Positions 2-50,341 are shown, counted from the stretch's first letter. The stretch: DNA of 64,000 nucleotides from Candidatus Aenigmatarchaeota archaeon (GCA_038998335.1 JAVZHQ010000001.1:594165-658164), one strand, 5' to 3'. Numbers and translations: made by a program. Notes: a model not told the origin generated them from the sequence alone.

Positions 2-3000
2 ATTTATAGTGTTGCTGAAAACGCAAGCGTTTCACCAAGCGAAGCAGGTTGGTCAAGAGTTTTTAATTATTCGATTGAAGTTTATGATCAAGAAGGGGAT
101 ACAATAAACTGCTCTTTATTCGTTAGTAAAGATAACAAGCAAACCTGGGAGTATAAAGGAAGTTATATAATTCAAGGAACTCCTGGAATTCCTACACAAG
201 GAACTTGTTGGGTTGCTTTGCATGATTTTTCATGCGAAGATATAGATAAACCAGAAGGTCAAGAGTGGATTGTAAGTAAGGCAAAATGGTTTAAGTGGAA
301 GATTGAAAATGGAGAACCTAGCAATACTTATAATACTTCAGAGTTTCAAGGGCCAAACATAACTGAATCTCAAGTTTTAATTAGTTATATAGTTGGTGAT
401 AATAGCTATGTTAATAGAAGTTCTGGAATAAATCAAGTTGTAAGATTAGCTGTAAACGTTTTTGATTTGGAAAACTTAAGCTGTGCTTCTAACGTAAACG
501 TAAGCTTCTGGGTTACTCATGACAATTCTAATTATCAGCTCGATATAGTAAACCAAACTGATAGTTACGGAAATGCAAGCTATTACTTTAACCCAGATTG
601 TTCTTACTCAACAGGAAAACAATACTGGATAGCTGGAGTAACTGATTCTTGCTATATGAATACAAATGCTTCAAGCAATTTCACGGTTTATGTTATAGGA
701 GATTTGATTCCAATTATACTTTCACCGAAAGGAGAGAAGTACTTAAGAAGTAATTATGAAGACGGTCAGCTTGTTCCTTTCAAAACTTTTGTAAAAGATG
801 AGTGCGGCTTAGCTATAGTTAATGCTCAAGTTAATTTCAGTGGAATAAAAGATTCAGAAGTTAAGTGGTGTTCTCAAGTTACAAACCTTGGTGATGGCAA
901 TTATACTTGCGAACTTAACACGAGCAACTTTAAAGCACAAGGTTGGAATTCTAGTGTAAACGTTTCTGCAAACTTTTACAATTCAAACTCTTCTTTAGAA
1001 ATTTTTGTTATCTGGCAGAAAGGATTCTGGGTTGAAACTAAACCAATACTAACAACAGATTGGTGGTATGAAAGCAGAGATTATCTTGGGAATTTGGGAG
1101 ACGGAAGCTGGGGAGAAACCTGGTACTTTAGAGTTAATGCTAGCGATGAAGATTATGACATTTTGGAAGTTAAACTTTGGGTAAACTCAAGTCAAGTTGG
1201 AGGTGACTGGGCCCAACCATTACCAGTATACATGACAAACTCAAGCGTTCAAGGGAAAAATGTAACAGTTATTTTTATCATACCAGGATGGCCAAGCCAT
1301 TCAAACCCAGGTCTAGGCTTTCATGTATTCAAGTTTAACGTTAGCGAAGTAAAAGATATCTATAACAATGCAACAAAAGATTTTGTTAATAACACTTATG
1401 AAATAGGAAATGGAAACTTTACAATAACAAAAGATGATTTGCTTCTAATACATGTTGAAGGAAATAACACTTCTGTTCATAGACCAGGAAACAATTACCA
1501 AACTTTAAGTGTAAAAGTTTTCGATAGAGATAAAGGAAGTGATGTAACAAGTGGAATTTTAAGCACAAACGTAAGAATATGGGTAACTAACGATCTAGCT
1601 TCCAACTTTACTTCAATTCCTTCAACCTTCTCTTCAGGTTATATAAACACTTCTGCCTTACAATTCGATCCTGATTGCAGCTTTAGAGTTGGACCACAAA
1701 AGTGGAAGGCTGGTGTGCTTTATACAGATGCTTACAAGGCAACAAACTCTTCTGACTTCTTTATAAACATAACAACAGATCCTTTGAAGGTTGAACTTTT
1801 ACAACCGTTAGATGCAAAACTTTACTTGAAAGGAATAGAAGATGTTCCTGTTAAAGTTAAAGTTACAGATGAATGTGGAGGAGTAAGCGAAGCAAACGTT
1901 ACAATAATTTCTCAGCAGCTAGGAGCCTATCCTCCAAACAAGGATTGTGTTGAAGATCAAAGTCCAAAAGGTCAAATATTTTACGAAGGAAGTGGAATTT
2001 ATAACTGCACCTTCAGAGCAGACACAACTGCACAAGAAGAACCGGCATGGCTTTATGGTTATACTAATGTTTCAGTCCAAGCTTTCAAAGCTTACTATAA
2101 CTCTAGTGAAGTAAATTTCACGATAAACTCTTACTATTTAGCATCCAAACCAGAAATTACTCTGAAATCCCTCTACACAGATTATGGAACAAGTGGGTGG
2201 GGAGAAAACTGGCATTTCCCAGTTGACATAGAAGATAAAGATTATAATGCTCAGCTTGGGTCAACTATAAACGTATACTTCTGGCTAAACTTGACAGGAA
2301 GCTGGCAGCTTTTTGCAAGCAAAACTTGTGTTCCTGCAACCGGAAACTGCACAAACTTAGAGTTCTATCCTGTTAACTTTACTTGCAACAGAACTTATAG
2401 CGATATAGGAGTGAAAGGTTACAAGGTAAATGCAAGCGATAATTTTGGTTATAAAGATGAGAAAGAAGCAACCTTTACCATAACTCAAGATCAGGCTGAC
2501 ATAGCTGACGTTAAATACTCAAAATCAATTATCGCAAGAGAGTTTAGCGACTCTGCATGGTTTGCTGCCTTGTTTGTTGACACGATAAGAGGGTTAGAAA
2601 TAACTTATGAAAATGTTAGTGGAAGAATTTACATAACAACCGACAACTCAAACTATTTGTTCAATTCAAGCTTATTATCTCAACCAAACGGTTACTTGAA
2701 CTATACTTTTGATCCTAATTGTAGCTTTTCAGTTGGAATACAAAAATGGAAGATTAACTTAGAAGATTCTTGCTATTATACTGCAACTTCAGGAGATCAA
2801 GAGTTTACTGTAGTTGGACAACTAAAGAATTTCTTGGTAGAGCCTTCTTATGGCTCAATAATAGAAATAGAAGTAGGAAAAACTGCTAACATAACTTCAA
2901 GTATAAAGGGAGAATGCGGAGAAAATGTTGAAGGGGCAAGCGTAACTCACGAAGCAAGATGGCCAGACTCAACTTTTGAAAATATTGTTCCAGTGGAAGA

Positions 3001-6000
3001 ATTGGGCTCAGGCTTGTACAATTCAACATGGAACTTAACTTTCAAGAAAGGAGGTTATTATGGCTTTAGAATTAACTCAAGTAAAGAATATTACTATCCA
3101 AACTCGAGCTTGTTTGCTGATTGGGTTTACTTGAACAACACTCCACCTCTCTATTCAAACCCAAGAGTTTCTCCTGGAACAGAAGGTTGGGGTTCCTACT
3201 TTAACTTTAGTATAGAAATTAACGATGCTCAGCAAGATAATGTTACTTGTACTCTATTTACTTCAACAGATAATCAGCAAACTTGGGTTGAAAGAGGAAG
3301 TACAATAGTTTATGGTGGTATAGGCTTATGTAGCATAAACGTTACTTTTGAGTGTAGCGATATAGGAGAAGATAATTGGTTTAAGTGGCAGTTAGATGAT
3401 GGGACAAACGTTTTTAACATTTCAGCTGTTCAAGGACCAAACATCACAGCAGATGATGTAATAATCTATTATATTTATGGAAATGAAACAAAAGTAAATA
3501 GAAGCGATAGTTCTATTGGTAATATTCAACTTTTAGTAGTTGGAGTTAACGATACTGACAGAAAAGTTCCAGCTAATGCTACAGTAACATTTTACGTAAC
3601 AAAGGACGGTAACACTTTCTTGTACGAAAGTAATATAACAAATTCAAGTGGAATAGCAACTTACTACTTTAACCCAGATTGTAACTATAACCCTGGCTTA
3701 CAAAAATGGTATGCAGCAGTAACAGATTACTGCTATTCTTACCAAAGAACTCAAAACTACAGTATAGAAATTTATGCAGATTTTGTTTATTCCCCATCAG
3801 CTTACAGACAAGGCTTTACTACTGATAAAACAATTTTACGCTCAGAGCAAAACGTTACTCTTGATGCAGGAAACCCAAACATTGCTGAAGAAATGACAAT
3901 AAGAGATGATTGTGGAGGAGAAATTGATGTTGATTGGATAAGCATGCAAGCAATTCATAACTTAACCGGAGAAACTTATAGCTGCACTGAAATAATTAAT
4001 CCTGCAGTAGGAATTTACAGATGCGCAAGAAATACAAGCGATATGAAAGCAAGGTGGTACGATGTTTTGGTTAGCGTTTCAAAAGAATATTTCAACAATA
4101 AATCAGTAAGAAAAACGCAAGAATTCTTCGTAGAAACTAAGCCTGAACTAAGGAATTTAACCGTAAAATCAACTCAAGGAGGAGAAACAGGAGGATGGGG
4201 CGAGAGATTCTACTTTAACGTTACTGTTACTGATGAAGATTATGATTTTGTTAATGTTACTCTTTATGTGAGAAGGGTTGGCTCAACTTACTGGATACTA
4301 GCAAACAAAACAGACTTGGATTCACCAGTAATAAACAGAACAATAACTTTAAGCTGGGTAAGAGAAACATGCGATGCAAGCCATTCAGACCCATATCCTC
4401 ATGCTTGGGAGTTTAAGTTTAACGCAAGCGACGATCCAAACTATCCATTGCCTTACGAGGATATGTATGAAAGTACAATAGAGCCAGCAAACTTCTACTT
4501 GGAAAAAGACGATGTAAGCTTGCAGCTAATGAGTGGAAATAACGTTGAAGTTTGGAGGAACGGAACTGATTCAAAATTGCTAAGCTTAAAAGTAATAGAT
4601 ACAGACTTAAACAATTTGCCAGTAGGTTCAGGAGTTAACGGAAGCTTCTGGGTAACAACTAATGGGTTAATTTTTGCAGGACAAAAGATTTCTGAAACTG
4701 ATGAATACGGAAACTTAACTTACAACTTCCCGCAAGACTTGCCTTCTGGCCAAAACAAGTGTGATTTCAAGACAGGAATACAAAAATGGTTTGCAGGCGT
4801 TTATAACGATGCTTGCTATAAGGATAAAAACAGCACAAACTATACTATAACAATAAAATCTTTGCTTTTGCCTTTAATTTACTATCCTTCAGGGCAAGGT
4901 TTCCTTAGAGGAGATAATGTTCCAGTTCAAGGTTTCTTAACAGATGAATGCAGCTATGTGGAAAATGCGACTGTAGTCTTTACCTTTATTCCTCAAGCTG
5001 GTTCGCCTTATCAGTGCACAATAACTGATAATAATGGTTGGATAGAAGGTGAAGGTTGGTATAATTGTACTAAGAATACTGCAGGAAAACCAAAAGGTTG
5101 GTACAACCTTAGCATGAGCACTAGTAAAACTTATTATGCAAGCAATTCAACCCTCAAACCTTTTGCCTTCTTCTTAGGAGATAAGCCAGTTTTGAGCAAC
5201 CCAAGGGTTGACCATTACACTGGAGGTTGGGGTGAGCAGTATACTTTTACTGTTACTTTCACTGATGCTGACTTGAACATAAACAACGTAAGCTTGTGGA
5301 AGAGTTATGATAATGTTACTTGGTACTTAGTTGAGATGAAGCAAGTCCAAGGAATAGGAATAGACGTAAGCTTTACTCACAGGTTTACTTGCGAAGATTA
5401 TGCAAAGCAAGCGCCTTACTTCTACTTCAAGTTTAACACTACTGATCCCTTTGGCTTTACAGACGAAACAGCTTCAAGAAACATGACCTTGGAAAGAGAT
5501 AACGTTACTTTAACCTTAAGCTTAGCAAGCAACTCAAGCGTGAGAAGAATAGGAGATAACTTTGCTTACTTAGAGTTTAGGATTTATGATACAGATTATC
5601 AAAACTATCCAAGCAATGCTAACGGAACTATTTGGGTGACAAAAGATGGCCTAAACTTTTCTGTTGCTTATGAGTGCACTTCCTCTCAAGGGTACTGCTC
5701 TGCTTTGCACAATCCAGATTGCGACTCTTCTGTTGGTTTACAATACTGGAAAGGAGGAATAGTAGAGAAAGATGGTTTTAGCTGCTACCAAGTTATCAAT
5801 TCTTCAGTTTTCAACTTTACTGTTTACGGTCAGCTTAATATTTCAATAATTTCACCTGAACAAGGAAAAATATTGAACAGAGGAAAAACTCACAGCTTTA
5901 ACGCAAGCGTTAAGAATGACTGTGGAGAAGAAGTAAACGATGCAAGTATTAACTGGTACAACTCTTCCTGGCACTCCTTAGCTTCTGGTTATAATACAAG

Positions 6001-6110
6001 CTGGCTTGTTCCTATAACATACAAGCTTGGGCCTGAAACTATTTATTCAAACGTTTCAAGGCAATACTACGACGGAAACTACAACTTCAGCTCAGTCTAC
6101 ATTTATGGTT
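2..6110 (+). repeat. Six in-frame tandem supermodules of ~1.0-1.09 kb (~330-360 aa each) within the giant ORF
   Basis: A recurrent G-W-G-E/S-x-(W/F/Y)-x-F motif followed by an acidic D-E-D-Y-D-like patch occurs near nt 47, 1108, 2195, 3186, 4194 and 5228. A recurrent F-N/D-P-D/N-C-x-(F/Y)-x-x-G-x-Q-K/Y-W-x-A/G-G-V..D-x-C-Y motif occurs once per unit. Copies are divergent at the DNA level. Confidence 0.8.
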
Positions 6111-9100
6111 GGAGCGAAATAGACTCAATTTCTCCTGCCAATTCTTCAAGCTATGCTGCTGGCACACCAATAACAATAACTTGTCATGTGAGAGATTCTA
6201 ATACTTCGCAACCAATACCAAACTATACTGTCAGCTTTTTGAAGAACGGAGAATCTTTGGAAAACGCAAGTACAGATTCACAAGGATATGCAAGCATAGT
6301 TTGGTACACTAACTTGGAAGGGGCAGGATGGTACAACTTAACTTGCTTTATTGAAAGCAACTCAACTTTATACTATAATGCTACTTTAGCACAAATGGAA
6401 ACTTGGATAAGGCTCAGCAGACCTTTACAAATTGATCAAATAATTCCTCAATATCCTTGGGTTTATAGAAACGATTCTTTCACTCCTTACCAAACAAACA
6501 TAAGCGTTCATGTTAGGGATGCTCAAATAGGGCATGCTAGCAACGCAAACATTAGCTTCTACAACTCAACTCATTTCTTATTCAGTTGCTTAACAAACTC
6601 AACAGGATGGTGCGAGCTAATTGACTTTAACCCACCAGACGATTACACTCCTTCACCTTATTGGATATACATAAACGCAACAAGGCCAGGAAATGAAGAT
6701 TCTCTCACTAATTCAACTTCAATAACAGTTAAAGGAATTTTATTTGTTAACATTACTTCACCACTAAACGAAAGTCTTCATCCAAAATCAGAAGCTATAG
6801 ATTTAAGCGCAACTGTAATAAGTGAAAATGGAGAAAACTCTTCTGTTCTTAACCCGACAGTTAAATGGTACAACGAAACTGCATTGCTTGCTGTAGGCTT
6901 AGAAGTAACTCTGCCTCAGCCAATAGTTGCTCAGCAAAGAACAGGACCTCATCAGCTTATGGCAATTGCAAGCAAAAGTTATTATGAAGATGGAAAATCA
7001 AACGTTAGTATAATAATAACTGGTTTAGCAGATGTTGTTTGGATTTCGCCAATAGGAATAACTCCCTATCCAGAAGAATTCTATCCAACTTGTTTGGTAA
7101 AAGATCATGAATCTGGAGCAGGAATTTCTGATTATGAGGTCAACTTTTCTTACAAGTGGGAACCTTCCTCTGAATTTATATTTAACGGAAGTTATACAAC
7201 TAATTCTTCTGGTTATGCAAGTTATGTTTTTATTCCAACACAAAAAGGAAACATTACTTTTAATTGTTCTATAGGACCAAACGCTACTCAGTACTATTCA
7301 CCAAACATAAAAGAAGCGATAGAAACGATTTGGGTAAAAGATATAAGCTTGCCAAAAATCTTTAACTTTTCTGTAATTCCAAACTCAAGCATAGAAGCAA
7401 ACCTTAATCTTACTTACATAAACGCAACAATAATTGACAATTATGCTGTAGAATCTGTCTGGGCAAACATTACTTTGCCGAATGGAAGCATAGTAATAGT
7501 TCCTATGAGCAATATAAGTGTGCCGGAAACAGGTTTTGGATTTTTCAGAGCAACTTATTCCGCAAGCTACCTTCCACCGATCGGAGGAGAGTATAACATA
7601 AGCGTTTATGCAAGAGATTATCCACCAGAATCTAACGTTAATAGTACTTTTGTTGGTAACATAAGCGTTTGGGGGAAGATTTCTGGCTTGGTTGAGCAAC
7701 TTCCTGCCAACATAGTAGCTTATAACATAACTCAAACTCAAGGCTTTACTTTTGAAGTTTCTGTTAACTTTACTAACTTAGGACCAGCAACCGCTTATTC
7801 TGTTAACTTGACTCATGCAGAAGATCCTTTAGGTTCGCTAACTTATAATGAAAGCAGAAAAGAGTGTGGAACAGTTTATGCAGGACAAACCTGCTCTTGG
7901 GTTTTCAAAATAACTGTACCAGAAAAAACTTCTCCGCAGCTAATAAGAGCTTATACTATAGCTACATGGCAAAACCCTGATAAAACTGTTGAGCAAAAAC
8001 TGAATGAAACATCAATAACAGTTTCTTCAAATCCTGTAATAGAGATTATTCCAAAGAGCATAAACAAAACAACTCCTCACGACTTGACAACTTATATTGG
8101 TAATATAACAACTTATGCCTCTGGAAATGATGAAGTAAGAGATGTTTCAATAAGCACAGTTGGAGGAAACCTTGCTTTTGATTGTCCACTTTGTGTTTTA
8201 TCTATAATTCCAAACTCTTATGGCTTGCTTCCAGCAGGCGAAAGTTTTGTCTCAGATATAACGATAACAGTACCTGCAGGTCAAGCACCAGGAATTTACT
8301 GGACAAAAGTAAGAGCAAGCTCTAGTAATGCAGGCTATGATGAAATGCTTCTCAACTTAACAATACCAATAAATACTTCTTGGATAAGAAGCCCAGAAAG
8401 CTTCGGTTATGTTTTACTTCCCTTAAACACAAGCGGAACCATAGGGAATATAACCGTAACAAACATAGGAAATGTAAAAATACCTTTCGAGATTCTTAAG
8501 TCTGGAAATGGAAGTATTTTTGTTACTGCTTATCCTTCAGGAGCAAAAGGAACAACTGCCTTTGACTTAGAAAAACAAGTTTCAAGAAACGTTAGTGTTG
8601 ACTATTCAGTTCCTTGGAATGCTTATCAAGCAATTTACACTGTAAACATAGTTATAAGAAACGTTACTTTTGCAAACCCACCTGAAAGAATAACAACAAT
8701 AATACTTAACGTTACTGATGTCCCACCAACAATAACTGACATAATAGTTGAGCCAAGAGTTTTTGAAATAGGTTTTGAAAACGTTACTATACAAGCAAAG
8801 ATTACTGATAATTTTGCAGTGGATAAAGCATGGGTTAACATTACTTTACCAAACGGCTCAAGCTTTGTTCAGTTTATGGATTCCTTTGCTGGTTCAATCT
8901 ACAACACAACTTATTCAAGCTTACAAGAAGGAATTCATTTAATTAGAATATGTGCAAACGACACTCGCTCTTTAGAAGGATGCACTTCGCCAATAGAAGT
9001 TGAGGGTTCGGCAACTACAAGACTAGAAATAATTCCAAACATTACTCACATTTTAGCAAACGATATAACAATAGAGTATGGACAAAGCTTTGCCGTTAAC

Positions 9101-12100
9101 ATAACTTTGAATAATACTGGCGGCTCAAGAGCTTTTGATTCTAATTTAACCATAGATTCTGGTTTTATTTCAAGCGAACCAAGCTTCTTTGATTTTGGAA
9201 CTATCTTGAAATGGAAATCAAAGTCAAACATAACTTTAATAAGCATACCGAACGGGACTGAAACAGGAATCTATTACATAAACTTGACAGCAAAATGGAA
9301 GAACTTGAACGAAACTTATAACTCAAGCTTTGCTCAAATTCTTGTAAACGTTACTCCAAACCCAAAGCTTAAAGTTATAGAAGAAAACATAACAAAAATA
9401 ATTCCTCCAGGAGCAAAGGATAGTGTAAACATTACTCTCAAATCAATAGGAAATAAAAACGTTACAAATGTTGAAATAAACTGCACAAGAGGAATAGTTT
9501 GTCAAGACTTTAACGTTTCCTTTGAACCCAAAAACTTCACTTCAATACCGATTGGTGAAACAAGGCAAGTTAATGTAAGCTTTGAAGTTCCTCCAAACTA
9601 CTTAGCAGGAACTCATAACGGAACAATAGAAATAAGATGGGATTCTGAGTTTTACTTAGAGCTTCCTGTTTTCATAACAGTTCCTGTAAACATAACTTGG
9701 GAGCATAACCCGAAAGTTTTAAGCTCTTATGTTTTGCAAGATGATAAAGGATACTTTGGAAGCATAGATATAATAAACACAGGAAACTCAGAAATAGAGC
9801 TTGAGCTTATAAAAACAGGTGAAATAGCTCCTTATCTTAACTTGAGTGAAACAAGAATAGTTTTGCCTTACAACGGAATAAAAACAATTCATATAACCTA
9901 TTCTTCACCTGACATTCAATTTGACAAAAACTACACAGGAAAGATAATAAGCAACATAACAGGAAGTTTGAGAGAAAACGCAACAGAAAAGACAAGAGAG
10001 ACTTTTGTAAGCATGTTTGTTTCTGTTTACAAGGTTAAGATAATAAGTCCAACAAGCTCTAATCCTATAATTGGAGTTGTTAATGGAAACGAAATTCTAG
10101 CAAAAGTTAACGTTACTGCAAACTCAAGCTTTGTTACTCAAAACGTAAGCTTTAACGTTTCTATCTTTGATTATGAAAGAAAGGCAGAAGCTTTTGTTAG
10201 CTCTGCTTATTACAACTCAACTGAAAAGCTATGGTTTGTTAGGTTTATAGCTCCTGATTTAGAGGAAGCAAGAGTTTATAACTTAAACATAACCGCAAGC
10301 TACAATGGAACAAGGTATTTAGTGAGAAGTGATGTAGAAAATGATTCAATAGTTTATCGCGACACTCAAGCTCCTTTAATAGAGCTAATTACTCCTGTAA
10401 GAATACCTGCAAACTCTACAGTTAGAGTTTTGGTTAACGTTACAGAAAGCGGAGGAATCAAGAATGTAAGCGGAGAAATAACTTATCCTGACAACACAAC
10501 CCAAAACATAAGCTTTACTTTAATCTCAAGAATCAAGGATAATTACTTGTTTGAGTATAACTTGACAAACACTTCAAGCCTAGGAAATTACACAATATCA
10601 GCTTTTGTTTGTGACTTAAGCGAAAATTGCAACTCTGCTTCAAAATCTTTTGAAATCTATCCTGTTGCTATATTTTCAGGCTATGCTAAGGACTTGGAAC
10701 AAATTTCTGAACCTGCCTTAAGAGTTAACTTCAAGTTTTACGATCAAGGAAGTGAAACAATAAGGTTTGACTTTAACTCAAACGCAACCGATGGCTATTA
10801 CAACGAAACTATAGATATGAAAACTTATGATTTGAAAATAAGCTTGCTTGAACCTACTTTTAGCCATCAAATTCTTTTGTACAACTTGACCATAGCTACA
10901 GATTATTTCAACCCAATAGTTTTTGGTAATGTTCCTAACGTGAGAACAACGAGCTCAGCAGTAAAAGGAGTTTATCTTAACACTGTCTTAAGACCAGCTT
11001 ACTTTATACTTAAAATCAACTTTTCTGATTGTGTTTTAGGTTTATGTAACGTTCCTATTCATGACCCAAACAAGCTTGGAATTTATAAGTATGGTGGAAA
11101 CTGGACACCAAAAGTTTCTACTGCCCAAAACACTAATTGGGTGAGAATTACTAACAGAGAAATGGACAACTCAGATAAGTCAGTAAACTTAACTGATTAC
11201 ACTGTTACAGTAAACTTAAGTGATATAAGAGGAGTTTATATTCTTGCAGAATTTATTTGTGGGAATGGAGAATGCGAATCTGAAGCAGGAGAAAGCACTA
11301 GTAATTGCCCAATAGATTGCCCAGCAATACCTCCTGCTCCTCAAGTTCCGATTTACATTCCACCTACAATTCCACCAATAGTAGGAGGACCTGGTGGACC
11401 AGGAGGACCTGGAGCAGGTCCTGCTGCTCCTCCTGTAGCCTTAGTTCCCTTGGAAGTAAAAACTACTTTGATAGAAACAACTCTTACTCCTGGTGAAGAA
11501 AAAGTATTTTCTATTGACGTGACTAACAACTTAGACACAGCTACAAACGTAAGAATTACTGTAGAAGGTCCTGTCTTTCAACTTTTAACAGTTCAGAAGC
11601 CTACGTTTACTGTCGCTCCTAAATCTACTGAAGTTACTGCTGTAAGAGCTTATGCTCCTCCAAGAATTGCACCAGGAATTTACACTGGCGATCTAGTGGT
11701 TACTGCAGGGAATATTGTTCATAGGACTCCTGTAACCATAGTTGTGCAACAAGTTCCTGAACCTTTGCTTGACGTGAGCGTAAAAATACTTTCAAAAGCA
11801 ATCAACCCAGGAACAAACCTTACTTTTGAGGTTAAGCTTATAAACATGGGCCCAACTGCTAAGGTTGAAGATATAACAGTAACTTACACTGTTAAGCCAC
11901 TAAACGAAGATAGAATAATAGCAACTTCAAAAGAAACTCTTGCAGTAGAGACAGAAAAAACTTATGTGAGAAGTTTGGAAATTCCTTCTGACACACCAGA
12001 AGGAAGGTATGTCTTAGAAGTTAACGCAAGCTATTGGTATGGTATAAAGTATGCTATTTCAACAGATAGCTTTGAAGTAACAGTTCTTCCTCTACCAATC

Positions 12101-13303
12101 TTTATACTCAGAAGTGTATTCATGCATTGGCTAACTTATGTTATTCTTTTTGTTGTGGTTCCTCTGTTGATAATAGGAATTAAATGGTACGGTGCTTACA
12201 GAGCAGCGAAAGCAGCAAAAGCAAGGTATATTGCACCAGTAGAATTTAAGAAACTGCCTCAGGCAAGTCCTAACTCCATAGAAGTTGGAAAAATTGCCGA
12301 AACTGATGTCAAAGCTTACCTAGATATTTCTCAGTTGTTAATGCATTCTATAGCAGCTGGTGGCACCGGCTCAGGCAAAAGTGTCTCTGCAATGGTTTGT
12401 GCTGAAGAATTACTGAAAAGAAAAGTTCCTGTAATAGTCTTTGATCCTACTGCTCAATGGACAGGATTTATGAAACCTTGCAGGTTCAAAGAAATGCTTG
12501 ACCTCTATCCAAAGTTCGGTCTTAAGCCAACAGATGCAAGAAGCTTCAAAACTAACATAATAGTTGTAGAAGACCCAGAAATGCCCATAGACATAAAGAA
12601 GTACATGAACCCGGGAGAGATTACTGTTTTTGTTATGAATAGGCTGCCTCCTGAGCAGTTAGACAAGTTTGTTAGAAGAAGCATTCAGGCAATATTTGAC
12701 ATGAGACCTCCAGAATCAAAGCAAATTAAATTGTTACTTGTTTATGACGAGGTTCATAGATTATTACCAAAGTATGGAGGAAAGGGAGGTTATGTAGCAA
12801 TAGAAAGAGCTTGCAGAGAGTTTAGAAAGTGGGGAATTGGAGTTTTCTTAATCTCGCAAGTATTACAAGATTTCAAGGGAGCCATAAGAGCTAACATAGC
12901 AAACGAGATTCAGCTAAGAACAAAGTACGAAGGAGATATAGGAAGAGTAAGGTCAAAGTATGGCATAGATTATGCTTCTAGAGTAACGAAGCTAACAGTT
13001 GGTACAGGAATGGTACAGAATCCTGAGTACAATTATGGTAAGCCATGGTTCGTTAGCTTTAGGCCTTTGTTGCATTCGCCTTTTGCTTTGACCGATGAGG
13101 AGCTTAACCTTTACATGAAGCTTACGAAGAAGATTGAAGAGTTGGAGAAGAGAATTGAGAAGCTAAAGGCGAAGAAGGTTGACACTTACGATGTTGAAAT
13201 TGAGCTGAACATAGCTAAGGATAAAGTTAAGACTGCAGCTTTCAAGATGGCCGAAACTTATCTTGAGTCTGTTGAAAAGAGAATAGAAAAAATGGGTGGA
13301 TAA
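2..13303 (+). CDS. Giant cell-surface protein (>=4,433 aa, 5' end outside window) with one C-terminal TM helix and a cytoplasmic HerA/FtsK-superfamily (DUF87-like) P-loop ATPase domain
   Basis: The frame of track ORF 218..13303 stays open back to nt 2; the track start is an internal TTG. The upstream residues (..EAGWSRVFNYSIEVYDQEGDTINCSLF..) continue the repeat unit. The ectodomain is built of repeated beta-rich modules with dense N-x-S/T. It is followed by a Cys-rich knot, a Pro/Gly linker, TM FMHWLTYVILFVVVPLLIIGI, Walker A AAGGTGSGKS, Walker B LLLVYDEVH and REFRKWGIGVFLISQ. Confidence 0.9.
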   Translation: MYSVAENASVSPSEAGWSRVFNYSIEVYDQEGDTINCSLFVSKDNKQTWEYKGSYIIQGTPGIPTQGTCWVALHDFSCEDIDKPEGQEWIVSKAKWFKWKIENGEPSNTYNTSEFQGPNITESQVLISYIVGDNSYVNRSSGINQVVRLAVNVFDLENLSCASNVNVSFWVTHDNSNYQLDIVNQTDSYGNASYYFNPDCSYSTGKQYWIAGVTDSCYMNTNASSNFTVYVIGDLIPIILSPKGEKYLRSNYEDGQLVPFKTFVKDECGLAIVNAQVNFSGIKDSEVKWCSQVTNLGDGNYTCELNTSNFKAQGWNSSVNVSANFYNSNSSLEIFVIWQKGFWVETKPILTTDWWYESRDYLGNLGDGSWGETWYFRVNASDEDYDILEVKLWVNSSQVGGDWAQPLPVYMTNSSVQGKNVTVIFIIPGWPSHSNPGLGFHVFKFNVSEVKDIYNNATKDFVNNTYEIGNGNFTITKDDLLLIHVEGNNTSVHRPGNNYQTLSVKVFDRDKGSDVTSGILSTNVRIWVTNDLASNFTSIPSTFSSGYINTSALQFDPDCSFRVGPQKWKAGVLYTDAYKATNSSDFFINITTDPLKVELLQPLDAKLYLKGIEDVPVKVKVTDECGGVSEANVTIISQQLGAYPPNKDCVEDQSPKGQIFYEGSGIYNCTFRADTTAQEEPAWLYGYTNVSVQAFKAYYNSSEVNFTINSYYLASKPEITLKSLYTDYGTSGWGENWHFPVDIEDKDYNAQLGSTINVYFWLNLTGSWQLFASKTCVPATGNCTNLEFYPVNFTCNRTYSDIGVKGYKVNASDNFGYKDEKEATFTITQDQADIADVKYSKSIIAREFSDSAWFAALFVDTIRGLEITYENVSGRIYITTDNSNYLFNSSLLSQPNGYLNYTFDPNCSFSVGIQKWKINLEDSCYYTATSGDQEFTVVGQLKNFLVEPSYGSIIEIEVGKTANITSSIKGECGENVEGASVTHEARWPDSTFENIVPVEELGSGLYNSTWNLTFKKGGYYGFRINSSKEYYYPNSSLFADWVYLNNTPPLYSNPRVSPGTEGWGSYFNFSIEINDAQQDNVTCTLFTSTDNQQTWVERGSTIVYGGIGLCSINVTFECSDIGEDNWFKWQLDDGTNVFNISAVQGPNITADDVIIYYIYGNETKVNRSDSSIGNIQLLVVGVNDTDRKVPANATVTFYVTKDGNTFLYESNITNSSGIATYYFNPDCNYNPGLQKWYAAVTDYCYSYQRTQNYSIEIYADFVYSPSAYRQGFTTDKTILRSEQNVTLDAGNPNIAEEMTIRDDCGGEIDVDWISMQAIHNLTGETYSCTEIINPAVGIYRCARNTSDMKARWYDVLVSVSKEYFNNKSVRKTQEFFVETKPELRNLTVKSTQGGETGGWGERFYFNVTVTDEDYDFVNVTLYVRRVGSTYWILANKTDLDSPVINRTITLSWVRETCDASHSDPYPHAWEFKFNASDDPNYPLPYEDMYESTIEPANFYLEKDDVSLQLMSGNNVEVWRNGTDSKLLSLKVIDTDLNNLPVGSGVNGSFWVTTNGLIFAGQKISETDEYGNLTYNFPQDLPSGQNKCDFKTGIQKWFAGVYNDACYKDKNSTNYTITIKSLLLPLIYYPSGQGFLRGDNVPVQGFLTDECSYVENATVVFTFIPQAGSPYQCTITDNNGWIEGEGWYNCTKNTAGKPKGWYNLSMSTSKTYYASNSTLKPFAFFLGDKPVLSNPRVDHYTGGWGEQYTFTVTFTDADLNINNVSLWKSYDNVTWYLVEMKQVQGIGIDVSFTHRFTCEDYAKQAPYFYFKFNTTDPFGFTDETASRNMTLERDNVTLTLSLASNSSVRRIGDNFAYLEFRIYDTDYQNYPSNANGTIWVTKDGLNFSVAYECTSSQGYCSALHNPDCDSSVGLQYWKGGIVEKDGFSCYQVINSSVFNFTVYGQLNISIISPEQGKILNRGKTHSFNASVKNDCGEEVNDASINWYNSSWHSLASGYNTSWLVPITYKLGPETIYSNVSRQYYDGNYNFSSVYIYGWSEIDSISPANSSSYAAGTPITITCHVRDSNTSQPIPNYTVSFLKNGESLENASTDSQGYASIVWYTNLEGAGWYNLTCFIESNSTLYYNATLAQMETWIRLSRPLQIDQIIPQYPWVYRNDSFTPYQTNISVHVRDAQIGHASNANISFYNSTHFLFSCLTNSTGWCELIDFNPPDDYTPSPYWIYINATRPGNEDSLTNSTSITVKGILFVNITSPLNESLHPKSEAIDLSATVISENGENSSVLNPTVKWYNETALLAVGLEVTLPQPIVAQQRTGPHQLMAIASKSYYEDGKSNVSIIITGLADVVWISPIGITPYPEEFYPTCLVKDHESGAGISDYEVNFSYKWEPSSEFIFNGSYTTNSSGYASYVFIPTQKGNITFNCSIGPNATQYYSPNIKEAIETIWVKDISLPKIFNFSVIPNSSIEANLNLTYINATIIDNYAVESVWANITLPNGSIVIVPMSNISVPETGFGFFRATYSASYLPPIGGEYNISVYARDYPPESNVNSTFVGNISVWGKISGLVEQLPANIVAYNITQTQGFTFEVSVNFTNLGPATAYSVNLTHAEDPLGSLTYNESRKECGTVYAGQTCSWVFKITVPEKTSPQLIRAYTIATWQNPDKTVEQKLNETSITVSSNPVIEIIPKSINKTTPHDLTTYIGNITTYASGNDEVRDVSISTVGGNLAFDCPLCVLSIIPNSYGLLPAGESFVSDITITVPAGQAPGIYWTKVRASSSNAGYDEMLLNLTIPINTSWIRSPESFGYVLLPLNTSGTIGNITVTNIGNVKIPFEILKSGNGSIFVTAYPSGAKGTTAFDLEKQVSRNVSVDYSVPWNAYQAIYTVNIVIRNVTFANPPERITTIILNVTDVPPTITDIIVEPRVFEIGFENVTIQAKITDNFAVDKAWVNITLPNGSSFVQFMDSFAGSIYNTTYSSLQEGIHLIRICANDTRSLEGCTSPIEVEGSATTRLEIIPNITHILANDITIEYGQSFAVNITLNNTGGSRAFDSNLTIDSGFISSEPSFFDFGTILKWKSKSNITLISIPNGTETGIYYINLTAKWKNLNETYNSSFAQILVNVTPNPKLKVIEENITKIIPPGAKDSVNITLKSIGNKNVTNVEINCTRGIVCQDFNVSFEPKNFTSIPIGETRQVNVSFEVPPNYLAGTHNGTIEIRWDSEFYLELPVFITVPVNITWEHNPKVLSSYVLQDDKGYFGSIDIINTGNSEIELELIKTGEIAPYLNLSETRIVLPYNGIKTIHITYSSPDIQFDKNYTGKIISNITGSLRENATEKTRETFVSMFVSVYKVKIISPTSSNPIIGVVNGNEILAKVNVTANSSFVTQNVSFNVSIFDYERKAEAFVSSAYYNSTEKLWFVRFIAPDLEEARVYNLNITASYNGTRYLVRSDVENDSIVYRDTQAPLIELITPVRIPANSTVRVLVNVTESGGIKNVSGEITYPDNTTQNISFTLISRIKDNYLFEYNLTNTSSLGNYTISAFVCDLSENCNSASKSFEIYPVAIFSGYAKDLEQISEPALRVNFKFYDQGSETIRFDFNSNATDGYYNETIDMKTYDLKISLLEPTFSHQILLYNLTIATDYFNPIVFGNVPNVRTTSSAVKGVYLNTVLRPAYFILKINFSDCVLGLCNVPIHDPNKLGIYKYGGNWTPKVSTAQNTNWVRITNREMDNSDKSVNLTDYTVTVNLSDIRGVYILAEFICGNGECESEAGESTSNCPIDCPAIPPAPQVPIYIPPTIPPIVGGPGGPGGPGAGPAAPPVALVPLEVKTTLIETTLTPGEEKVFSIDVTNNLDTATNVRITVEGPVFQLLTVQKPTFTVAPKSTEVTAVRAYAPPRIAPGIYTGDLVVTAGNIVHRTPVTIVVQQVPEPLLDVSVKILSKAINPGTNLTFEVKLINMGPTAKVEDITVTYTVKPLNEDRIIATSKETLAVETEKTYVRSLEIPSDTPEGRYVLEVNASYWYGIKYAISTDSFEVTVLPLPIFILRSVFMHWLTYVILFVVVPLLIIGIKWYGAYRAAKAAKARYIAPVEFKKLPQASPNSIEVGKIAETDVKAYLDISQLLMHSIAAGGTGSGKSVSAMVCAEELLKRKVPVIVFDPTAQWTGFMKPCRFKEMLDLYPKFGLKPTDARSFKTNIIVVEDPEMPIDIKKYMNPGEITVFVMNRLPPEQLDKFVRRSIQAIFDMRPPESKQIKLLLVYDEVHRLLPKYGGKGGYVAIERACREFRKWGIGVFLISQVLQDFKGAIRANIANEIQLRTKYEGDIGRVRSKYGIDYASRVTKLTVGTGMVQNPEYNYGKPWFVSFRPLLHSPFALTDEELNLYMKLTKKIEELEKRIEKLKAKKVDTYDVEIELNIAKDKVKTAAFKMAETYLESVEKRIEKMGG
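11258..11449 (+). other. Cys-rich knot (CGNGECESEAGESTSNCPIDC) followed by a Pro/Gly-rich linker (PAIPPAPQVPIYIPPTIPPIVGGPGGPGGPGAGPAAPPVA)
   Basis: Read directly from the translation of the giant ORF. The linker separates the repeat-rich ectodomain from two membrane-proximal beta-sandwich-like domains. Confidence 0.7.
12119..12193 (+). other. Single predicted transmembrane helix of the giant protein
   Basis: Hydrophobic stretch FMHWLTYVILFVVVPLLIIGI is followed by the basic KWYGAYRAAKAAKARY (positive-inside). N-x-S/T sequons are abundant before it and absent after it. Confidence 0.75.
12200..13303 (+). other. Cytoplasmic HerA/FtsK-type (DUF87-like) ATPase domain plus C-terminal coiled coil
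   Basis: VGKIAETDVKAYLDISQLLMHSIAAGGTGSGKSVSAMVCAEELL contains Walker A at 12353-12382. KLLLVYDEVHRLLP contains Walker B at 12731-12757. REFRKWGIGVFLISQ resembles the conserved HerA/VirB4-type EGRK-G-hhhhh-SQ motif. The tail LTKKIEELEKRIEKLKAKK is coiled-coil-like. Confidence 0.75.
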
Positions 13304-15004: not shown

Positions 15005-15633
15005 GCAACTTCTAGCTTTATTTTCTCGCTAATCAAATCCAAAATTTTTCTTATATCATCGCTTTTGAAAAGCAAAACAATTTTTTGTTTAATTCTTTCT
15101 TCTGGAATTTCAAACTCTGATAAAAAAACTAGAGTATAGATTTCTTCTTTATAAACTTGACCAAGCTCGAATTCCTCTATTGCTCTAAAAGGGTTAACAG
15201 AAAGAAAAGGTTCTGACAAAACATACTTTGTGTTGAACAATTTTTGGAGAATGTTTATGAAATATCCTGAAAGGATGTTTGCAAGCTCTTTTAAAACAGG
15301 CAAGTTTTCGTCGCTCAAATCCTTAAAATAACCTTTCTCTTTTTTAAGGAAAATGTCGGCCATTCTTAATATATCCTTAAGGGAAGAAGAAAGCAAAATC
15401 ACCCCATTTACAGTGTTCTTAAGCTTGATGAAGAATATCGTAGTTGAAATTTTTTCTGGGTTTAAAAGTTTTGGAACTTCGTTCAAAAGTAAAACCTTTA
15501 AAAAGGAGGAAGAAACTTTAACTTCCTTGTTTATCATTTCCTTTAAAGCTTTTGCCGTAACTTCTGAACAGGATAGCCACATCTTTTTCAAAAGTTTTGA
15601 TTCGATTTTTGGGAGAGATATTTTCTTTGTCAT
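15001..15633 (-). CDS. CheC/CheX-family (CheY-P phosphatase-like) protein
   Basis: Two E-x2-N segments are present (KEMIN; KELANILSGYF...SEP). The second fits E-x2-N-x22-P by hand count. The gene sits directly downstream of a receiver-domain gene on the same strand. Confidence 0.5.
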   Translation of the reverse strand: MTKKISLPKIESKLLKKMWLSCSEVTAKALKEMINKEVKVSSSFLKVLLLNEVPKLLNPEKISTTIFFIKLKNTVNGVILLSSSLKDILRMADIFLKKEKGYFKDLSDENLPVLKELANILSGYFINILQKLFNTKYVLSEPFLSVNPFRAIEEFELGQVYKEEIYTLVFLSEFEIPEERIKQKIVLLFKSDDIRKILDLISEKIKLEVA

Positions 15634-15643
15634 CTTACCATTT

Positions 15644-16015
15644 CTAATCTCCCAAAATTTTTTTTACCCTTCTCACCAAATCCTCGTTGTCAAAAGGTTT
15701 TGTTATAAAATCCAAAACATTCAATTTTTCCATTTCTTCCATCCCAACTTCCGAAAGTCTAACAACTGTAAGAAAAGCTATTTTTAAGTTTTTTGTTTTC
15801 GGGTTTTCCCTTATTTTTTTTGTCGTTTCTTTCCCGGTCATTCCCGGCATCATCATATCCATAAGAATCAAGTCTGGCTTAACCTTTTCCAGTTTTTCTA
15901 GGCATTCTTTTCCACTATAAGCAGGAATTACCTCATATCCTTCTCTTTCAAAAATCGCTTTCACAAGCTCGACCAAATTTTCCTCGTCATCAACTATCAT
16001 TATCTTCTTCTTCAC
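15644..16015 (-). CDS. Single-domain response regulator (CheY-like receiver)
   Basis: MKKKIMIVDDEENLVELV...PDLILMDMMMPGMTGKETTKKIR...KIAFLTV shows the acidic pocket DD, the phospho-acceptor D in LILMD, and the conserved T and K. Confidence 0.9.
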   Translation of the reverse strand: MKKKIMIVDDEENLVELVKAIFEREGYEVIPAYSGKECLEKLEKVKPDLILMDMMMPGMTGKETTKKIRENPKTKNLKIAFLTVVRLSEVGMEEMEKLNVLDFITKPFDNEDLVRRVKKILGD

Positions 16016-16065
16016 TTCAAACCTCCTTAAATATTTATTTTTTTCTCTGATTAATATTTATTTGA

Positions 16066-16749: not shown

Positions 16750-16785
16750 TGCTTGGTATTTATTTAAGGAAGTTAAACTTAAATT

Positions 16786-17773: not shown

Positions 17774-17774
17774 A

Positions 17775-22398: not shown

Positions 22399-25300
22399 AT
22401 GGAAAAAAGGATTTTTTACGCTCTTCTATTAGCTTTACCCTTAATTTTTTCTATCCTTTATTTTTCTGGTTTTCTTAAATTGACAGGCTTTTTTGTTGGT
22501 TTTGGCCAGCCTGCAAGTGAATTCAAATGGTGGAACATTTCCTGGCATTATAGGGTAAGACTAGAAGTTAACACTTCTTCTTTTGAAAGAAAAAACTGGC
22601 CGGTAGAGTATAAAATAAACTTTACTGACTTGCTTCCCTATGGAAGTTTTGACGAGAACTCCACAAGAGTAATCGAATACAGCCAGGAAGGAGAGCTTTT
22701 AGGCGAGGTTCCAAGCCAGTTTGAAAAAGATGATGATTTTAACTCAGAAAATAACGCTTTAGGTACTTTAGTCTTTTTCTTGAACGGTAGCAATCCAGCA
22801 AACACAAAAAGAATATTCTTTGTCTATTATGATATTTTGGAAAACGGACCAAAAGAAAAAAGAGAATACCCTTCAAGCATAAGCTATTTTTGGGATGGTG
22901 AAGAGCTTAACGTTAACGCTTCTGGTCTTTCCTACTGGATAGACACTTTAAGAGGAGAAAACACTTCTGGTTTATATAGAGTAAGGGGAATCGCTTCTCA
23001 GCAGGATATTTGGTCTATTCCAGACGAAACAAAAAGAACAATAGAGTATTCTCAATACTCAAATGGGAGCAATAACCTTAGCTTTGATTTCAAACACAAC
23101 ATGAGCCTAAAATTTTCAGGTCCAGTTAGGCTAGTTTTTGAGCAGAAAGGTTATGAAACCCTTTGGAATTCTGAAGAAAGAACAAACGAGGGTTTTATGA
23201 TAAAAAGGTATTACTTTTACGATTTTGGTCTAGATGAAGAAAAATGGATAAAGATTGAAACTATTTTCAAAAATTTAGCATCTTACGAAATAGAAAGAAA
23301 CTCAACTTTTGCAGGAGCCTTAGGCTTAGATGCATCAAGGGCTTTTGGCTCAAGCTGGCAGTCTGCTTTTGGGAATACAAGCTATCCTGGATGGTGGTAT
23401 GCTTCTGATTTTTATAGTAGCTTCCACACAGGAATAATTCATTTTAACAGAAGCGTAGAGAATTTCTTTATTCAAAACAGTAGTTCAAAGGATAGAATTG
23501 GAATAGAGCTTAATTTAACTTCCATTCCTCCAGGAAGCTCTATTTCAACAATAGCAATTCTTCACTTTAACGATACTTCAGGAGACTATACTCAAGTTAG
23601 AGAATTGAGAAACAAAATAGAAAATCCAGAGATAATTATCCAATTCCTTCCAGAAGCTTGGTATGTTGAAATTATTCCTTCAACCAACTTTTCAATCTAC
23701 AACAGGAATGAAAGCATTTTAATAAAAGCAAACATTTCTTTAGGCGACCCTTACAACTTAACAAAATTTATTAACGCTACTCTTGACATGGGAACTTCTT
23801 CTGAAGCTGACGACCAAACTATAATTTTATACGATGATGGAAGCCATGAAGATGAAGTAGCTAACGATAAAGTTTTTACTAACTCTTTTGTTTTACCAAA
23901 CAACGCACAAGTAGGAATATGGACGATTAACTTTACTGCTTACTCAGAAGATCTTAAGTTCCTCAACTCAACTCTTTTAAGCTTTAACGTTACTGATGTT
24001 TTAAACGTAAGTGTAGTAGTCTTGAACAAAAAACCTATGGTAAATTCTTTGGTAGTAGCAAACGTTTACGTGAAAAATTACAGACAAGATTCTTGGATTG
24101 CGGGAGCAGAAATAAACTGCACCTATGACTCTTCTGAAGTTTTAAACAAAACAGATTACAATAACGGAACTTATTCAGTTAACTTTACTGCTCCTTCAGA
24201 AGAAGGAGTTTATTATTTATTTTGCAACGCAACAAAAAACGGAAACTTTGGTAATAATTCAGATAGCTTTACAACAGAACCAGGAAAAACAAACTTGACA
24301 ATAACAGCTGAACCTTCAAACCCAATTGTTTATAACATAACTTTATACCGAAACCAAAGCTTTGCTATTCTCGCAAACGCAACAAACTACGGAAATGGAA
24401 CTGCTTATTCTACAAACATAAGCTTAGAGCTTCTTAATGGCTGGACTGCAAACTCAACTCTTGAAGAATGCGGAGATATAGAAAAGCAAACTTTTTGTTT
24501 AAAATCTTTTAACATTACTGTTCCTAATGCTACGCCTCCTGGAGATTATTATATAAACGTTAGCGTTGCATGGAGAAACCCTGACACTACAATTTCTATC
24601 AACAAAACTGAAGTAAAGGTTACTGTTGCTTCAAATCCTTTGATTAATATTAGCGAAGAAAAAGTTTCTGGTGAAGCAGGAGATGGAATTTGGAACTTGA
24701 TTGGCAACTTTACTATTCTTTCAATAGGAAATGATAAACTAGAAAACATAAGTTTTAGTTGTTATTTTGGTAGAGTGTGTAGTGATTTTGAAGTTGAGTT
24801 TATTCCAAGTAATGTTTCTGTTATTCCTGCTGGTTCTAATTATAGTGTAGCTATTAATGTTTCAGTACCCCTAGGATATCCTAATGGAACCTATACTGGA
24901 ATTGTAAATGTTTCTTCTGAGAATGATGGGTTTGATAGTTTTGAAATAGAAATAAATATTCCGCCTAAAACTACTGTTAACGTTTCAACAAGCATAGCAA
25001 ACTACACAGCAAAAAATATAACTCAAAAAGATAATGAAACGTTTTCTTTTGAAACTAGTGCAACAAACATAGGAAAAACAAGCGCAAGAAGCTTAAACTT
25101 AAGCTTGGAACTGCCAACAAGCTGGAAAGCAAACTTAACTTTTGAAAGCTGCAACAATTTAACAAAAGACGAATCCTGCTTAAAATCTTTTAGCATTACT
25201 GTTCCTAATGCTACGCCTCCTGGAGATTATTATATAAACGTTACTGCAAACTGGACTAACTTGGACAATTCTATAGGAACAAACAAAACATCGTTAAGAG

Positions 25301-32306: not shown

Positions 32307-32309
32307 TTT

Positions 32310-33768: not shown

Positions 33769-33842
33769 AATTTTATTCTTAAAAAATTATCTTTAATATT
33801 TAACAATAATGTTTAAATATCAAGGTAAACAAAATTTTATAT

Positions 33843-34718: not shown

Positions 34719-34802
34719 ACCTAAGTAAAAACCCAGAAAAACTTGGCTTCTTTTTAGGTTTCATTCTTTTGAAATTTATTGTTAAAATTACAATTTGATA
34801 TT

Positions 34803-50270: not shown

Positions 50271-50341
50271 GGGCCTGTAGTCTAACGGTAGGACGCCACC
50301 CTCACACGGTGGAGAAAGGAGTTCGACTCTCCTCAGGCCCA
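50271..50341 (+). tRNA. tRNA-Val (anticodon CAC), no intron, CCA not encoded
   Basis: Hand-folded cloverleaf: GGGCCUG UA GUCU AACGGUA GGAC G CCACC CUCACAC GGUGG AGAA AGGAG UUCGACU CUCCU CAGGCCC A. Confidence 0.85.

Follow-up and report, generated by a model that had tools for sequence, protein, structure and literature searches.

How the tiny, host-dependent DPANN archaea hold and feed from their hosts is largely unknown, and genes of the SPEARE type are among the most conspicuous in these organisms. The name was given to very long nanohaloarchaeal proteins that lie for the most part outside the cytoplasm and have one transmembrane (TM) helix close to the C-terminus (Hamm et al., 2019; PMC6642349). 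Their ectodomains hold laminin-G and other adhesion domains together with protease-like and toxin-like regions, and their conserved intracellular region was read as a type III restriction enzyme; similar intracellular regions were noted in Woesearchaeota, Aenigmarchaeota, Micrarchaeota and Altiarchaeales, as was a short form of 717 aa (Hamm et al., 2019). Proteomics in the same study established that SPEARE is made, and recovered its ectodomain and its TM-cytoplasmic part in different gel size fractions. A re-analysis of homologues of 9,409 and 8,880 aa described ~75 immunoglobulin (Ig)-like domains behind a signal peptide, followed by a TM helix, a “VirB4/TraG-like ATPase” in the cytosol and a coiled coil at the end, found no endonuclease domain and proposed a “straw” resembling a type IV secretion system (T4SS) (Reva et al., 2023; PMC10266531). 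Published sizes are 5,998 aa (NAR1_1133), 8,553 aa (SG9), 9,409 aa (SVXNc_0300) and 717 aa (Lake Tyrrell short form). Here we describe a giant gene whose 3′ part opens a 64,000-nucleotide stretch of a Candidatus Aenigmatarchaeota archaeon genome (GCA_038998335.1, JAVZHQ010000001.1:594165-658164; hereafter the window, with positions counted from its first letter). Its product is almost certainly a SPEARE-family protein of hot-spring Aenigmatarchaeota (DPANN), and we compare its motor domain and its neighboring genes with those of the systems closest to it.

SPEARE membership and architecture of the giant protein

BLASTP aligned the last 616 residues of the window protein with the C-terminus of the Ca. 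Nanohaloarchaeum antarcticus SPEARE (NAR1_1133, as printed in supplementary Figure S18 of Hamm et al., 2019) at E = 1e-113 and 33% identity, across the Ig pair, the TM helix, the ATPase and the tail. The family assignment follows from this alignment and from an architecture that is the same as the published one, including great length that is mostly extracytoplasmic, a C-terminal TM helix, a homologous P-loop region and a terminal coiled coil. As in the nanohaloarchaeal proteins, the ectodomain is long and rich in Ig-like domains, and a Gly-rich linker, Pro/Gly-rich here and poly-Gly at the equivalent position of the Nha. antarcticus protein, and two NEW3-type Ig domains precede the TM helix; short forms of ~720 aa occur both among the nanohaloarchaeal SPEAREs and among the relatives of the window protein. 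The differences lie in lineage and habitat, in the gene downstream, which encodes a coiled-coil protein here and was reported as a VirB4-family ATPase in SVXNc and BNXNv, and in size, with relatives of the window protein reaching 11,499-12,230 aa against a published SPEARE maximum of 9,409 aa. An earlier note on this DNA had claimed that no giant adhesin tethered to such a motor was described. That claim is wrong: the orthologues place the architecture in a family already published (PMC6642349; PMC10266531), and the contact-coupled translocation in an episymbiont that the note envisaged was essentially proposed in the same two papers. For its force-generating variant we found no support in the window and related loci. 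The feature is real and biologically interesting and belongs to an already described class, not to a new one; the analysis adds the assignment of the motor to the HerA clade, a conserved downstream module, and a motif shared by two of the proteins of that module.

Relatives are encoded at a minimum of 559 loci of species-representative genomes, in bins whose record titles name Aenigmat-, Micr-, Nano-, Woese-, Nanohal-, Parv- and Altiarchaeota (labels as deposited). Two short contigs of 3.5-6.9 kb are labelled Heimdallarchaeota/Heimdallarchaeaceae (P0043 and L038; 58% and 69% identity, respectively, to the window's cytoplasmic module). They are probably mis-binned, because all other close relatives are DPANN. 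The “dark matter” papers of Makarova (2014, 2019) do not mention the family, and giant proteins are not linked to a SPEARE-type ATPase in Sakai (2022), in the ARM-1 cryo-electron tomography preprint or in West-Roberts (2023).

The reading frame runs on the + strand through 4,433 sense codons to a TAA at 13301-13303 with no internal stop, as the earlier note had read it. At ~36% GC, ~7% of random codons are stops and the arithmetic probability of such a frame is ~1e-142, which excludes a chance origin. The frame encodes an ectodomain of ~4,030 aa, one TM helix and a cytoplasmic part of ~365 aa; the giant repeat-built ectodomain proposed earlier thus stands, with this length within the window in place of ~3,960 residues. 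Hydropathy (Kyte-Doolittle, 19-residue window) peaks at 2.38 in the TM helix, with no other strong segment in the protein, and the helix placed by the note at 12119-12193 lies within this segment. The 17 residues before the helix have no Lys or Arg and the following 23 have 6, in agreement with the positive-inside rule. Glycosylation sequons (N-x-S/T, where x is not Pro) number 202 in 4,043 ectodomain residues, against ~59 expected from the composition of this part, and 0 in 367 cytoplasmic residues, against ~0.8 expected. The reported lack of cytoplasmic sequons was therefore correct, while the first 163 residues hold 7 strict sequons and not 9. An N-out/C-in topology, as the note had it, is well supported by the sequon asymmetry and the charge pattern. 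The protein is a type-I membrane protein, probably of ~10,000-12,000 aa at full length, as deduced from a related locus (L001; JGI Ga0527077_0545) that is collinear with aa 714-4430 of the window protein and has an upstream open reading frame (ORF) of at least 8,615 aa on its own.

Most of the visible ectodomain is built of repeats (Table 1). A profile of the ~350-aa super-repeat gave weak Ig-like matches (phage tail-tube Ig-like region, E = 0.003; Big_1, E = 0.002), and the ~445-aa repeats carry Ig-like Big_1 and NEW3 (NPCBM_assoc) domains, scored by Pfam at 34.7 bits for Big_1 and at 31.1 and 45.9 bits for NPCBM_assoc (cut-off 24.4). The sequon-rich stretch extends to ~aa 3750. Beyond it the order of parts is that of a conserved core: Cys-rich knot, Pro/Gly linker, two NEW3 Ig domains, TM helix, HerA-clade ATPase and coiled coil. 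The core begins with the knot and linker and is also present in the ~720-aa short forms (P0048, P0055, P0058, P0043), in which a signal peptide comes first, followed by a stretch rich in Cys and a PGGPGG linker. Complete family representatives (e.g., P0133, P0136 and P0159) also have a hydrophobic signal-like segment at the N-terminus. Besides Big_1, NEW3 and weak Ig matches, Pfam found no laminin-G domain in the visible ~4,030 aa, the window probably missing over 5,000 residues of the N-terminal part; nor did it find the protease-like and toxin-like regions of Hamm et al. (2019) in the visible ectodomain, over half of the protein being off-window. As part of the SPEARE identity, it is near-certain that the ectodomain is adhesin-like and consists of N-glycosylated Ig-like or beta-sandwich repeats.

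The fusion of ectodomain and ATPase is genuine and not an artefact. The junction is intact in an independent assembly of a hot-spring Aenigmatarchaeota metagenome-assembled genome (L005), which shows 98.1% identity across 17 kb, with 319 mismatches and 3 gap openings. Related genomes keep the fusion rather than a split gene pair, a choice that the earlier note had left to such comparisons: the ATPase frame is open to the sequence edge in 72 of the 80 best genome loci and, where a full 10-kb upstream flank is available, still open at ~3,690 aa or more in 42 of 45. Complete genes ending in the same TM-ATPase module, located by using homologues of the downstream partner gene (see below) as handles, encode 11,499 aa (L085; JGI Ga0450852_000062), 12,230 aa (L086; JGI Ga0467084_000115) and 4,833 aa (L088). 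The first two lie wholly inside their contigs by contig arithmetic, and both products are longer than the protein of 9,409 aa described in the literature as the largest of cultivated archaea. A library of representatives at 50% identity contained 369 clusters at E ≤ 1e-30, and, of the 150 representatives listed, most run to several thousand residues and have the ATPase at the C-terminus or close to it; those that could be parsed with a motif and hydropathy filter have a single TM helix ~52-62 residues before Walker A and the same sequon asymmetry. Shorter complete forms of about 720, 1,087 and 2,714 aa also exist.

That an adhesin gene and an independent TM-ATPase gene only seem fused, through a chimeric join, a missed stop or a frameshift, is, against this record, vanishingly improbable. 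Separate ATPase ORFs of ~400 aa that begin just before the TM helix do occur at two loci (P0003 in L001, and a form of ~390 aa in L020), and the two parts of SPEARE ran in different gel size fractions (Hamm et al., 2019). However, the stand-alone 400-aa ORF of L001 is explained by six frame changes over the last ~5 kb of its giant gene (L001 6000-10000); the upstream ORF, 25.8 kb long, is intact, and the locus stays collinear with the window despite these changes. The split could be pseudogenisation, a local assembly error or genuine, and the gene is intact in L085, a close relative of L001. The gel result points to post-translational processing rather than to separate genes.

The cytoplasmic motor

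The C-terminal ATPase of the HerA/FtsK superfamily announced by the earlier note was recovered by profile and by fold, and each motif that it quoted (Walker A, Walker B and REFRKWGIGVFLISQ) occurs in the sequence. Pfam scored the window protein above cut-off for DUF87 (46.3 bits; cut-off 23.2) and HerA_C (30.9 bits; cut-off 22), and the two profiles matched 34 and 31 of 34 family members, respectively. The AlphaFold2 model of the cytoplasmic domain, built on a 34-sequence alignment, had a predicted local distance difference test score (pLDDT) of 91.9 and a predicted template modelling score (pTM) of 0.91. Its best Foldseek matches in the PDB were SIR2-associated HerA, Sulfolobus HerA and Thermococcus HerA-NurA (8woc, E = 4e-13; 4d2i, E = 2e-12; also 9x1m), followed by the TcpA coupling protein and FtsK. 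At the sequence level all PDB matches were HerA-family, and REFRKWGIGVFLISQ aligned with the REGRKFGVGL..VSQ of HerA (Tko, Sso and SIR2-associated HerA). The Walker A Lys, the Walker B Asp-Glu, the R-x-x-R-K-x-G motif and the sensor Gln are invariant in the 34 aligned members, and the Arg residues of REFRKWG are candidates for a trans-acting arginine finger. From the Pfam profiles, the fold matches and the PDB sequence alignments, we assign the predicted motor to the HerA clade of the FtsK-HerA superfamily, rather than to VirB4/TraG, and not to restriction enzymes. Its viral relatives (HerA-like proteins, FtsK-like translocases and packaging ATPases) are generic FtsK-HerA pumps and add superfamily-level support only. 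The close structural relatives of known function are all nucleic-acid pumps or coupling ATPases (HerA, TcpA and FtsK; viral packaging ATPases).

Archaeal HerA, the helicase of HerA-NurA DNA end resection (PDB 4D2I, 9X1L), is the best match in both sequence and structure and shares the P-loop fold, Walker A and B and the RE-x-RK-x-G...SQ signature. It has an N-terminal HAS-barrel, for which the window domain has no room, with only three short strands before the P-loop; the window motor is also membrane-tethered, and genes for NurA, Mre11 and Rad50 were found neither in the window nor in the gene tables of related loci. A canonical HerA-NurA identity was rejected on these missing NurA neighbors and on NCBIfam equivalog scores of 25-38 bits against cut-offs of 800-970.

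The similarity to SIR2-HerA antiphage complexes, the top Foldseek matches, would also suit an anti-virus defence HerA, or a restriction-enzyme domain, that degrades incoming DNA. PADLOC HerA models matched at E = 6e-15, and Pfam ResIII, which was not reported for the window protein, matched 13 of the 34 relatives weakly, in line with the interpretation of Hamm et al. (2019). These weak ResIII matches, which are confined to the shared P-loop, explain the published “restriction enzyme” label, and Reva et al. (2023) also found no endonuclease domain. The PADLOC matches are generic to HerA; the NCBIfam antiphage HerA models scored 21-23 bits, short of their 800-850 cut-offs; the window protein, the window ORFs and the family scan yielded neither a partner nor a domain of the SIR2, DUF4297 or nuclease type; and anchoring in the membrane behind an ectodomain of ~10,000 aa is unlike known defence HerA systems. 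We consider a defence or restriction role very improbable, and both identities were rejected.

The published alternative is a T4SS-like straw in which a VirB4/TraG-like ATPase pushes protein effectors through or along the ectodomain into the host (Reva et al., 2023). It was proposed for nanohaloarchaeal homologues, whose downstream gene was reported as VirB4-family with PF03135 (PMC10266531), and TcpA is among our fold matches. The VirD4/TraG profile T4SS-DNA_transf (PF02534) scored 21.5 bits in the window protein against a cut-off of 20.1, yet no single stretch passes; across the family it matched 18 of 34 members weakly (E < 1e-3) and in the P-loop region only, TrwB_AAD_bind matched 5 of 34, and the FtsK_SpoIIIE match of the window protein fell below its cut-off. 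By contrast, the VirB4 N-terminal domain (PF03135, CagE_TrbE_VirB) is absent from the window protein and from all 34 members, the PDB matches by sequence are exclusively HerA, and the gene downstream codes for a coiled-coil partner, not for VirB4, in 82 of 84 loci. Furthermore, no T4SS or Ced component (VirB6/CedA-like channel, VirB3, VirB8 or pilin-like) was present among the scanned window ORFs or in five Pfam-annotated gene tables (L001, L002, L085, L086 and L088). We know of no tandem Ig-like rods that act as conduits. Effector export through such a straw is, on balance, quite unlikely for this family.

Other membrane-anchored pumps offer partial parallels. CedB and CedD of the crenarchaeal Ced system for DNA import are, like the window motor, HerA-clade and TM-anchored, and Ced works at cell-cell contacts; genetics shows that DNA import in Sulfolobales depends on CedB/CedD. 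The NCBIfam CedD match to the window motor is weak (37.8 bits; cut-off 600), and the window system lacks a VirB4-like N-terminal domain and has neither a CedA (VirB6-like) channel nor Ced pilins nearby, while the Ced proteins have no ectodomain. In VirD4/TrwB/TcpA, FtsK/SpoIIIE and Streptomyces TraB an N-terminal membrane anchor precedes a cytoplasmic hexameric pump, and TcpA and FtsK are fold matches; these pumps have 2-5 TM helices with hardly any external part, in contrast to the single TM helix and giant ectodomain seen here, and the window locus lacks the relaxosome or T4SS context of the coupling proteins. Halomucin, bacterial Ig-repeat adhesins and the giant proteins of Omnitrophota are likewise multi-thousand-residue, repeat-built surface proteins, glycosylated or Ig-like, and come from organisms that likewise attach themselves to other cells, but none is described with a C-terminal cytoplasmic P-loop motor.

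The downstream module and the proposed contact site

The gene that abuts the giant gene encodes a highly charged coiled-coil partner, whose homologues lie directly downstream on the same strand in the 82 loci mentioned above and, at ≥40% coverage, in 73 of 80. Its AlphaFold2 model is all-helical with a pTM of 0.26; the fold had no structural relative in Foldseek (best E = 0.5), the protein has no Pfam family, and NCBIfam returned nothing beyond weak coiled-coil noise of the SMC/Rad50 type. Farther downstream lies the gene for another giant type-I membrane protein, with MG2 and NEW3 domains. Homologues of ~1,600-1,950 aa follow in 39 of the 54 loci with at least 6 kb of downstream sequence, and the cytoplasmic tail is conserved in 41 loci. 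The window also encodes a 253-aa ParA/MinD-type ATPase, to which the ParA genes that follow the module in 32 loci, 30 of them in same-strand orientation, are best matched. Inserted genes have displaced the MG2 and ParA genes in the window. The block at 15001-22317, which separates partner and MG2 genes that are close together in most related loci, encodes a MEDS-domain protein, a HAMP-HisKA-HATPase histidine kinase, an SBP_bac_5 solute-binding protein and a triple-PAS protein. This signalling/transport block is also present in the 98%-identical L005, and, for a reduced DPANN genome, its two-component-like set of sensors is unusual.

The cytoplasmic tail of the MG2-type protein carries a motif (consensus KIKRMLELLEREYKEGIISEEAYEELKKRNEEKLKKIEKKLK) that is often found twice in the family of the coiled-coil partner. 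A hidden Markov model (HMM) of the motif (threshold i-E < 0.01, Z set to 100,000, with reversed decoys as controls) matched 19 of 34 partner homologues, at N- and C-terminal positions, and had no matches to the reversed decoys, the other window ORFs or 265 SPEARE tails. The last of these results led us to reject the presence of the motif in the SPEARE tail. The motif is SHOCT-like by eye, but Pfam SHOCT_2 gave E = 0.14 and a SHOCT identity was not assigned. The sharing of the motif suggests that the partner associates with the tail of the MG2-type protein. The partner, presumably translationally coupled to SPEARE, forms with the MG2-type protein and the ParA/MinD ATPase a conserved same-strand module that probably scaffolds and positions the SPEARE complex. 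A limited literature search found no description of the module or of the shared motif, which is not proof of novelty.

For the function of this complex we tentatively prefer, at somewhat less than even confidence and by analogy with relatives, a polymer translocase at the site of host contact. The ectodomain would bind the surface of the host cell, and the ATPase domains would form a hexameric ring lying flat on the inner face of the symbiont membrane, as in HerA, FtsK and the T4SS coupling proteins, where six TM helices, ~27 residues away from the strand that opens the ATPase fold, would hold it. Hydrolysis of ATP would then drive a polymer through the ring at the contact, most likely host-derived DNA if the analogy with the TM-anchored CedB/CedD holds, while the partner, the MG2-type giant protein and the ParA/MinD ATPase would scaffold and position the complex. 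Import of DNA or another nucleic acid is favored because the relatives with known substrates all pump nucleic acids, because CedB/CedD provide a precedent and because no T4SS parts lie nearby. The HerA clade, the lack of a T4SS context and the partner module make DNA or polymer import, and a scaffolded contact site, more promising hypotheses than effector injection or restriction.

Several points weigh against a translocase. The substrate, the hexamer and the ATPase activity are carried over to the SPEARE family from its relatives. The main weakness is the channel: the window and the five gene tables contain no polytopic component of the CedA/VirB6 type and no T4SS part, and a DNA conduit may need more than six single TM helices to line it. 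Neither the part of the protein that faces the host nor any region that might form a pore falls within the window. HerA rings can also scaffold or activate instead of pumping, as the SIR2-HerA complexes among the top fold matches illustrate, and the partner has no recognisable fold, so that its role is a guess.

The missing channel keeps alive a role as a non-translocating organiser, in which ATP-dependent hexamers, together with the partner and ParA/MinD, would cluster, position or switch the giant adhesins, along with the MG2-type protein, to form a contact patch or a scaffold of the envelope, with nothing pumped. Besides a coiled-coil protein, the module retains a positioning ATPase of the ParA/MinD type and another giant type-I membrane protein, which agrees with such a role, as do the motif common to partner and MG2 tail and the use of HerA as an assembly platform in the SIR2-HerA and DUF4297-HerA complexes that lead the fold matches. 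We regard it as doubtful, however, as the catalytic and sensor residues typical of pumps are invariant among the aligned members, the nearest relatives of known substrate all move nucleic acids, and the motif common to partner and MG2 tail is missing from the tail of SPEARE (0/265). The translocase reading can also be extended to a DPANN-wide, operon-like module of four genes that would build a positioned host-contact organelle, with the partner bridging by way of the MG2-tail motif and the HerA-clade ring importing host DNA or another polymer without a T4SS or Ced channel. In this full form the proposal is unlikely; if true, the four-gene SPEARE module would be a new kind of single-pass, adhesin-coupled translocon.

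Other features of the window

Table 1. Positions of the giant gene, its domains, its module partners and other features in the 64,000-nt window.
Feature	Position	Strand	Basis or remark
3′ 13.3 kb of SPEARE-family gene	2..13303	+	Uninterrupted frame; 5′ end beyond window
Six copies of ~350-aa super-repeat, sequon-rich	2..6121 (aa 1-2040)	+	Tile-versus-self BLASTP, copies 23-42% identical; alignment A3
Further repeats: two of ~300 aa (aa 2008-2446), two of ~445 aa (aa 2393-3273)	6023..9820	+	Tile-versus-self BLASTP
Unrepeated ectodomain region	9821..11257	+	Tile-versus-self BLASTP, no internal repeat detected
Cys-rich knot (CGNGECESEAGESTSNCPIDCP), then flexible Pro/Gly-rich linker	11258..11449	+	Start of conserved core
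Two juxtamembrane NEW3/CARDB-like Ig domains, sequon-poor (~2 sequons)	11450..12097	+	Aligned to SPEARE juxtamembrane region; conserved in alignment A1
Single TM helix, predicted N-terminus out, C-terminus in	12098..12199 (aa 4033-4066; core nt 12131-12181)	+	Hydropathy, Lys/Arg, sequons
Predicted HerA-clade P-loop ATPase domain	12212..13087	+	Pfam DUF87 and HerA_C, AlphaFold2, Foldseek
Walker A, AAGGTGSGKS	12353-12382	+	Motif read in translation
Walker B, LLLVYDEVH	12731-12757	+	Motif read in translation
HerA-type R-K-x-G...S-Q motif, REFRKWGIGVFLISQ	12815-12859	+	Motif read in translation
C-terminal coiled-coil tail of ATPase	13088..13300	+	AlphaFold2 helices at model residues 296-321, 327-341, 345-361; aligns with SPEARE tail
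Highly charged coiled-coil partner, 566 aa	13304..15004	+	ATG directly abuts TAA of giant gene
MG2/NEW3 type-I membrane protein, 1,954 aa, ~70-aa cytoplasmic tail	22399..28263	+	Pfam MG2 78.1 bits, NPCBM_assoc 108.5 bits
ParA/MinD-type ATPase, 253 aa	36888..37649	+	Pfam ParA, CbiA, AAA_31; orthologue of module ParA elsewhere
Dense cluster of predicted secreted/membrane-anchored proteins	28256-30565 (-), 31569-36062, 38275-41034 (-)		Signal-like N-termini in most
Archaeal signal recognition particle (SRP) RNA	46587-46870	+	130.9 bits
tRNA-Val(CAC)	50271-50342	+	
eRF1-like ORF, 219 aa	54506-55165	+	Matches eRF1 domains 1 and 3 only, no domain 2
tRNA-splicing endonuclease gene	55383-55949		Near tRNA-like matches
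tRNA-like Rfam match, 87 nt, may contain intron	56664-56750	-	Overlaps 3′ end of LAGLIDADG-like ORF (56741-57547, -)
tRNA-like Rfam match, partial	59683-59738	-	Model positions 9-63
Topoisomerase VI A/B	60618-63333		

The region with the dense cluster of predicted surface proteins looks like a cell-surface gene island. Its members include proteins of 769 aa (CarboxypepD_reg), 427 aa (NEW3) and 919 aa (BNR-like), along with four of 245, 172, 322 and 291 aa that have no family, and several are sequon-rich. A second gene of the ParA/MinD type (30547-31494, - strand; 315 aa), with an extra N-terminal helix-turn-helix (DUF7343/HTH_5), adjoins the gene for the 769-aa CarboxypepD_reg surface protein. 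The SRP RNA, the tRNA-Val(CAC) and topoisomerase VI A/B confirm an archaeal chromosomal context, and other ordinary archaeal chromosome genes encode the tRNA-splicing endonuclease, an archaemetzincin and an acetyl-CoA synthetase. ARAGORN called neither of the two tRNA-like Rfam matches, one of which overlaps the LAGLIDADG-like ORF.

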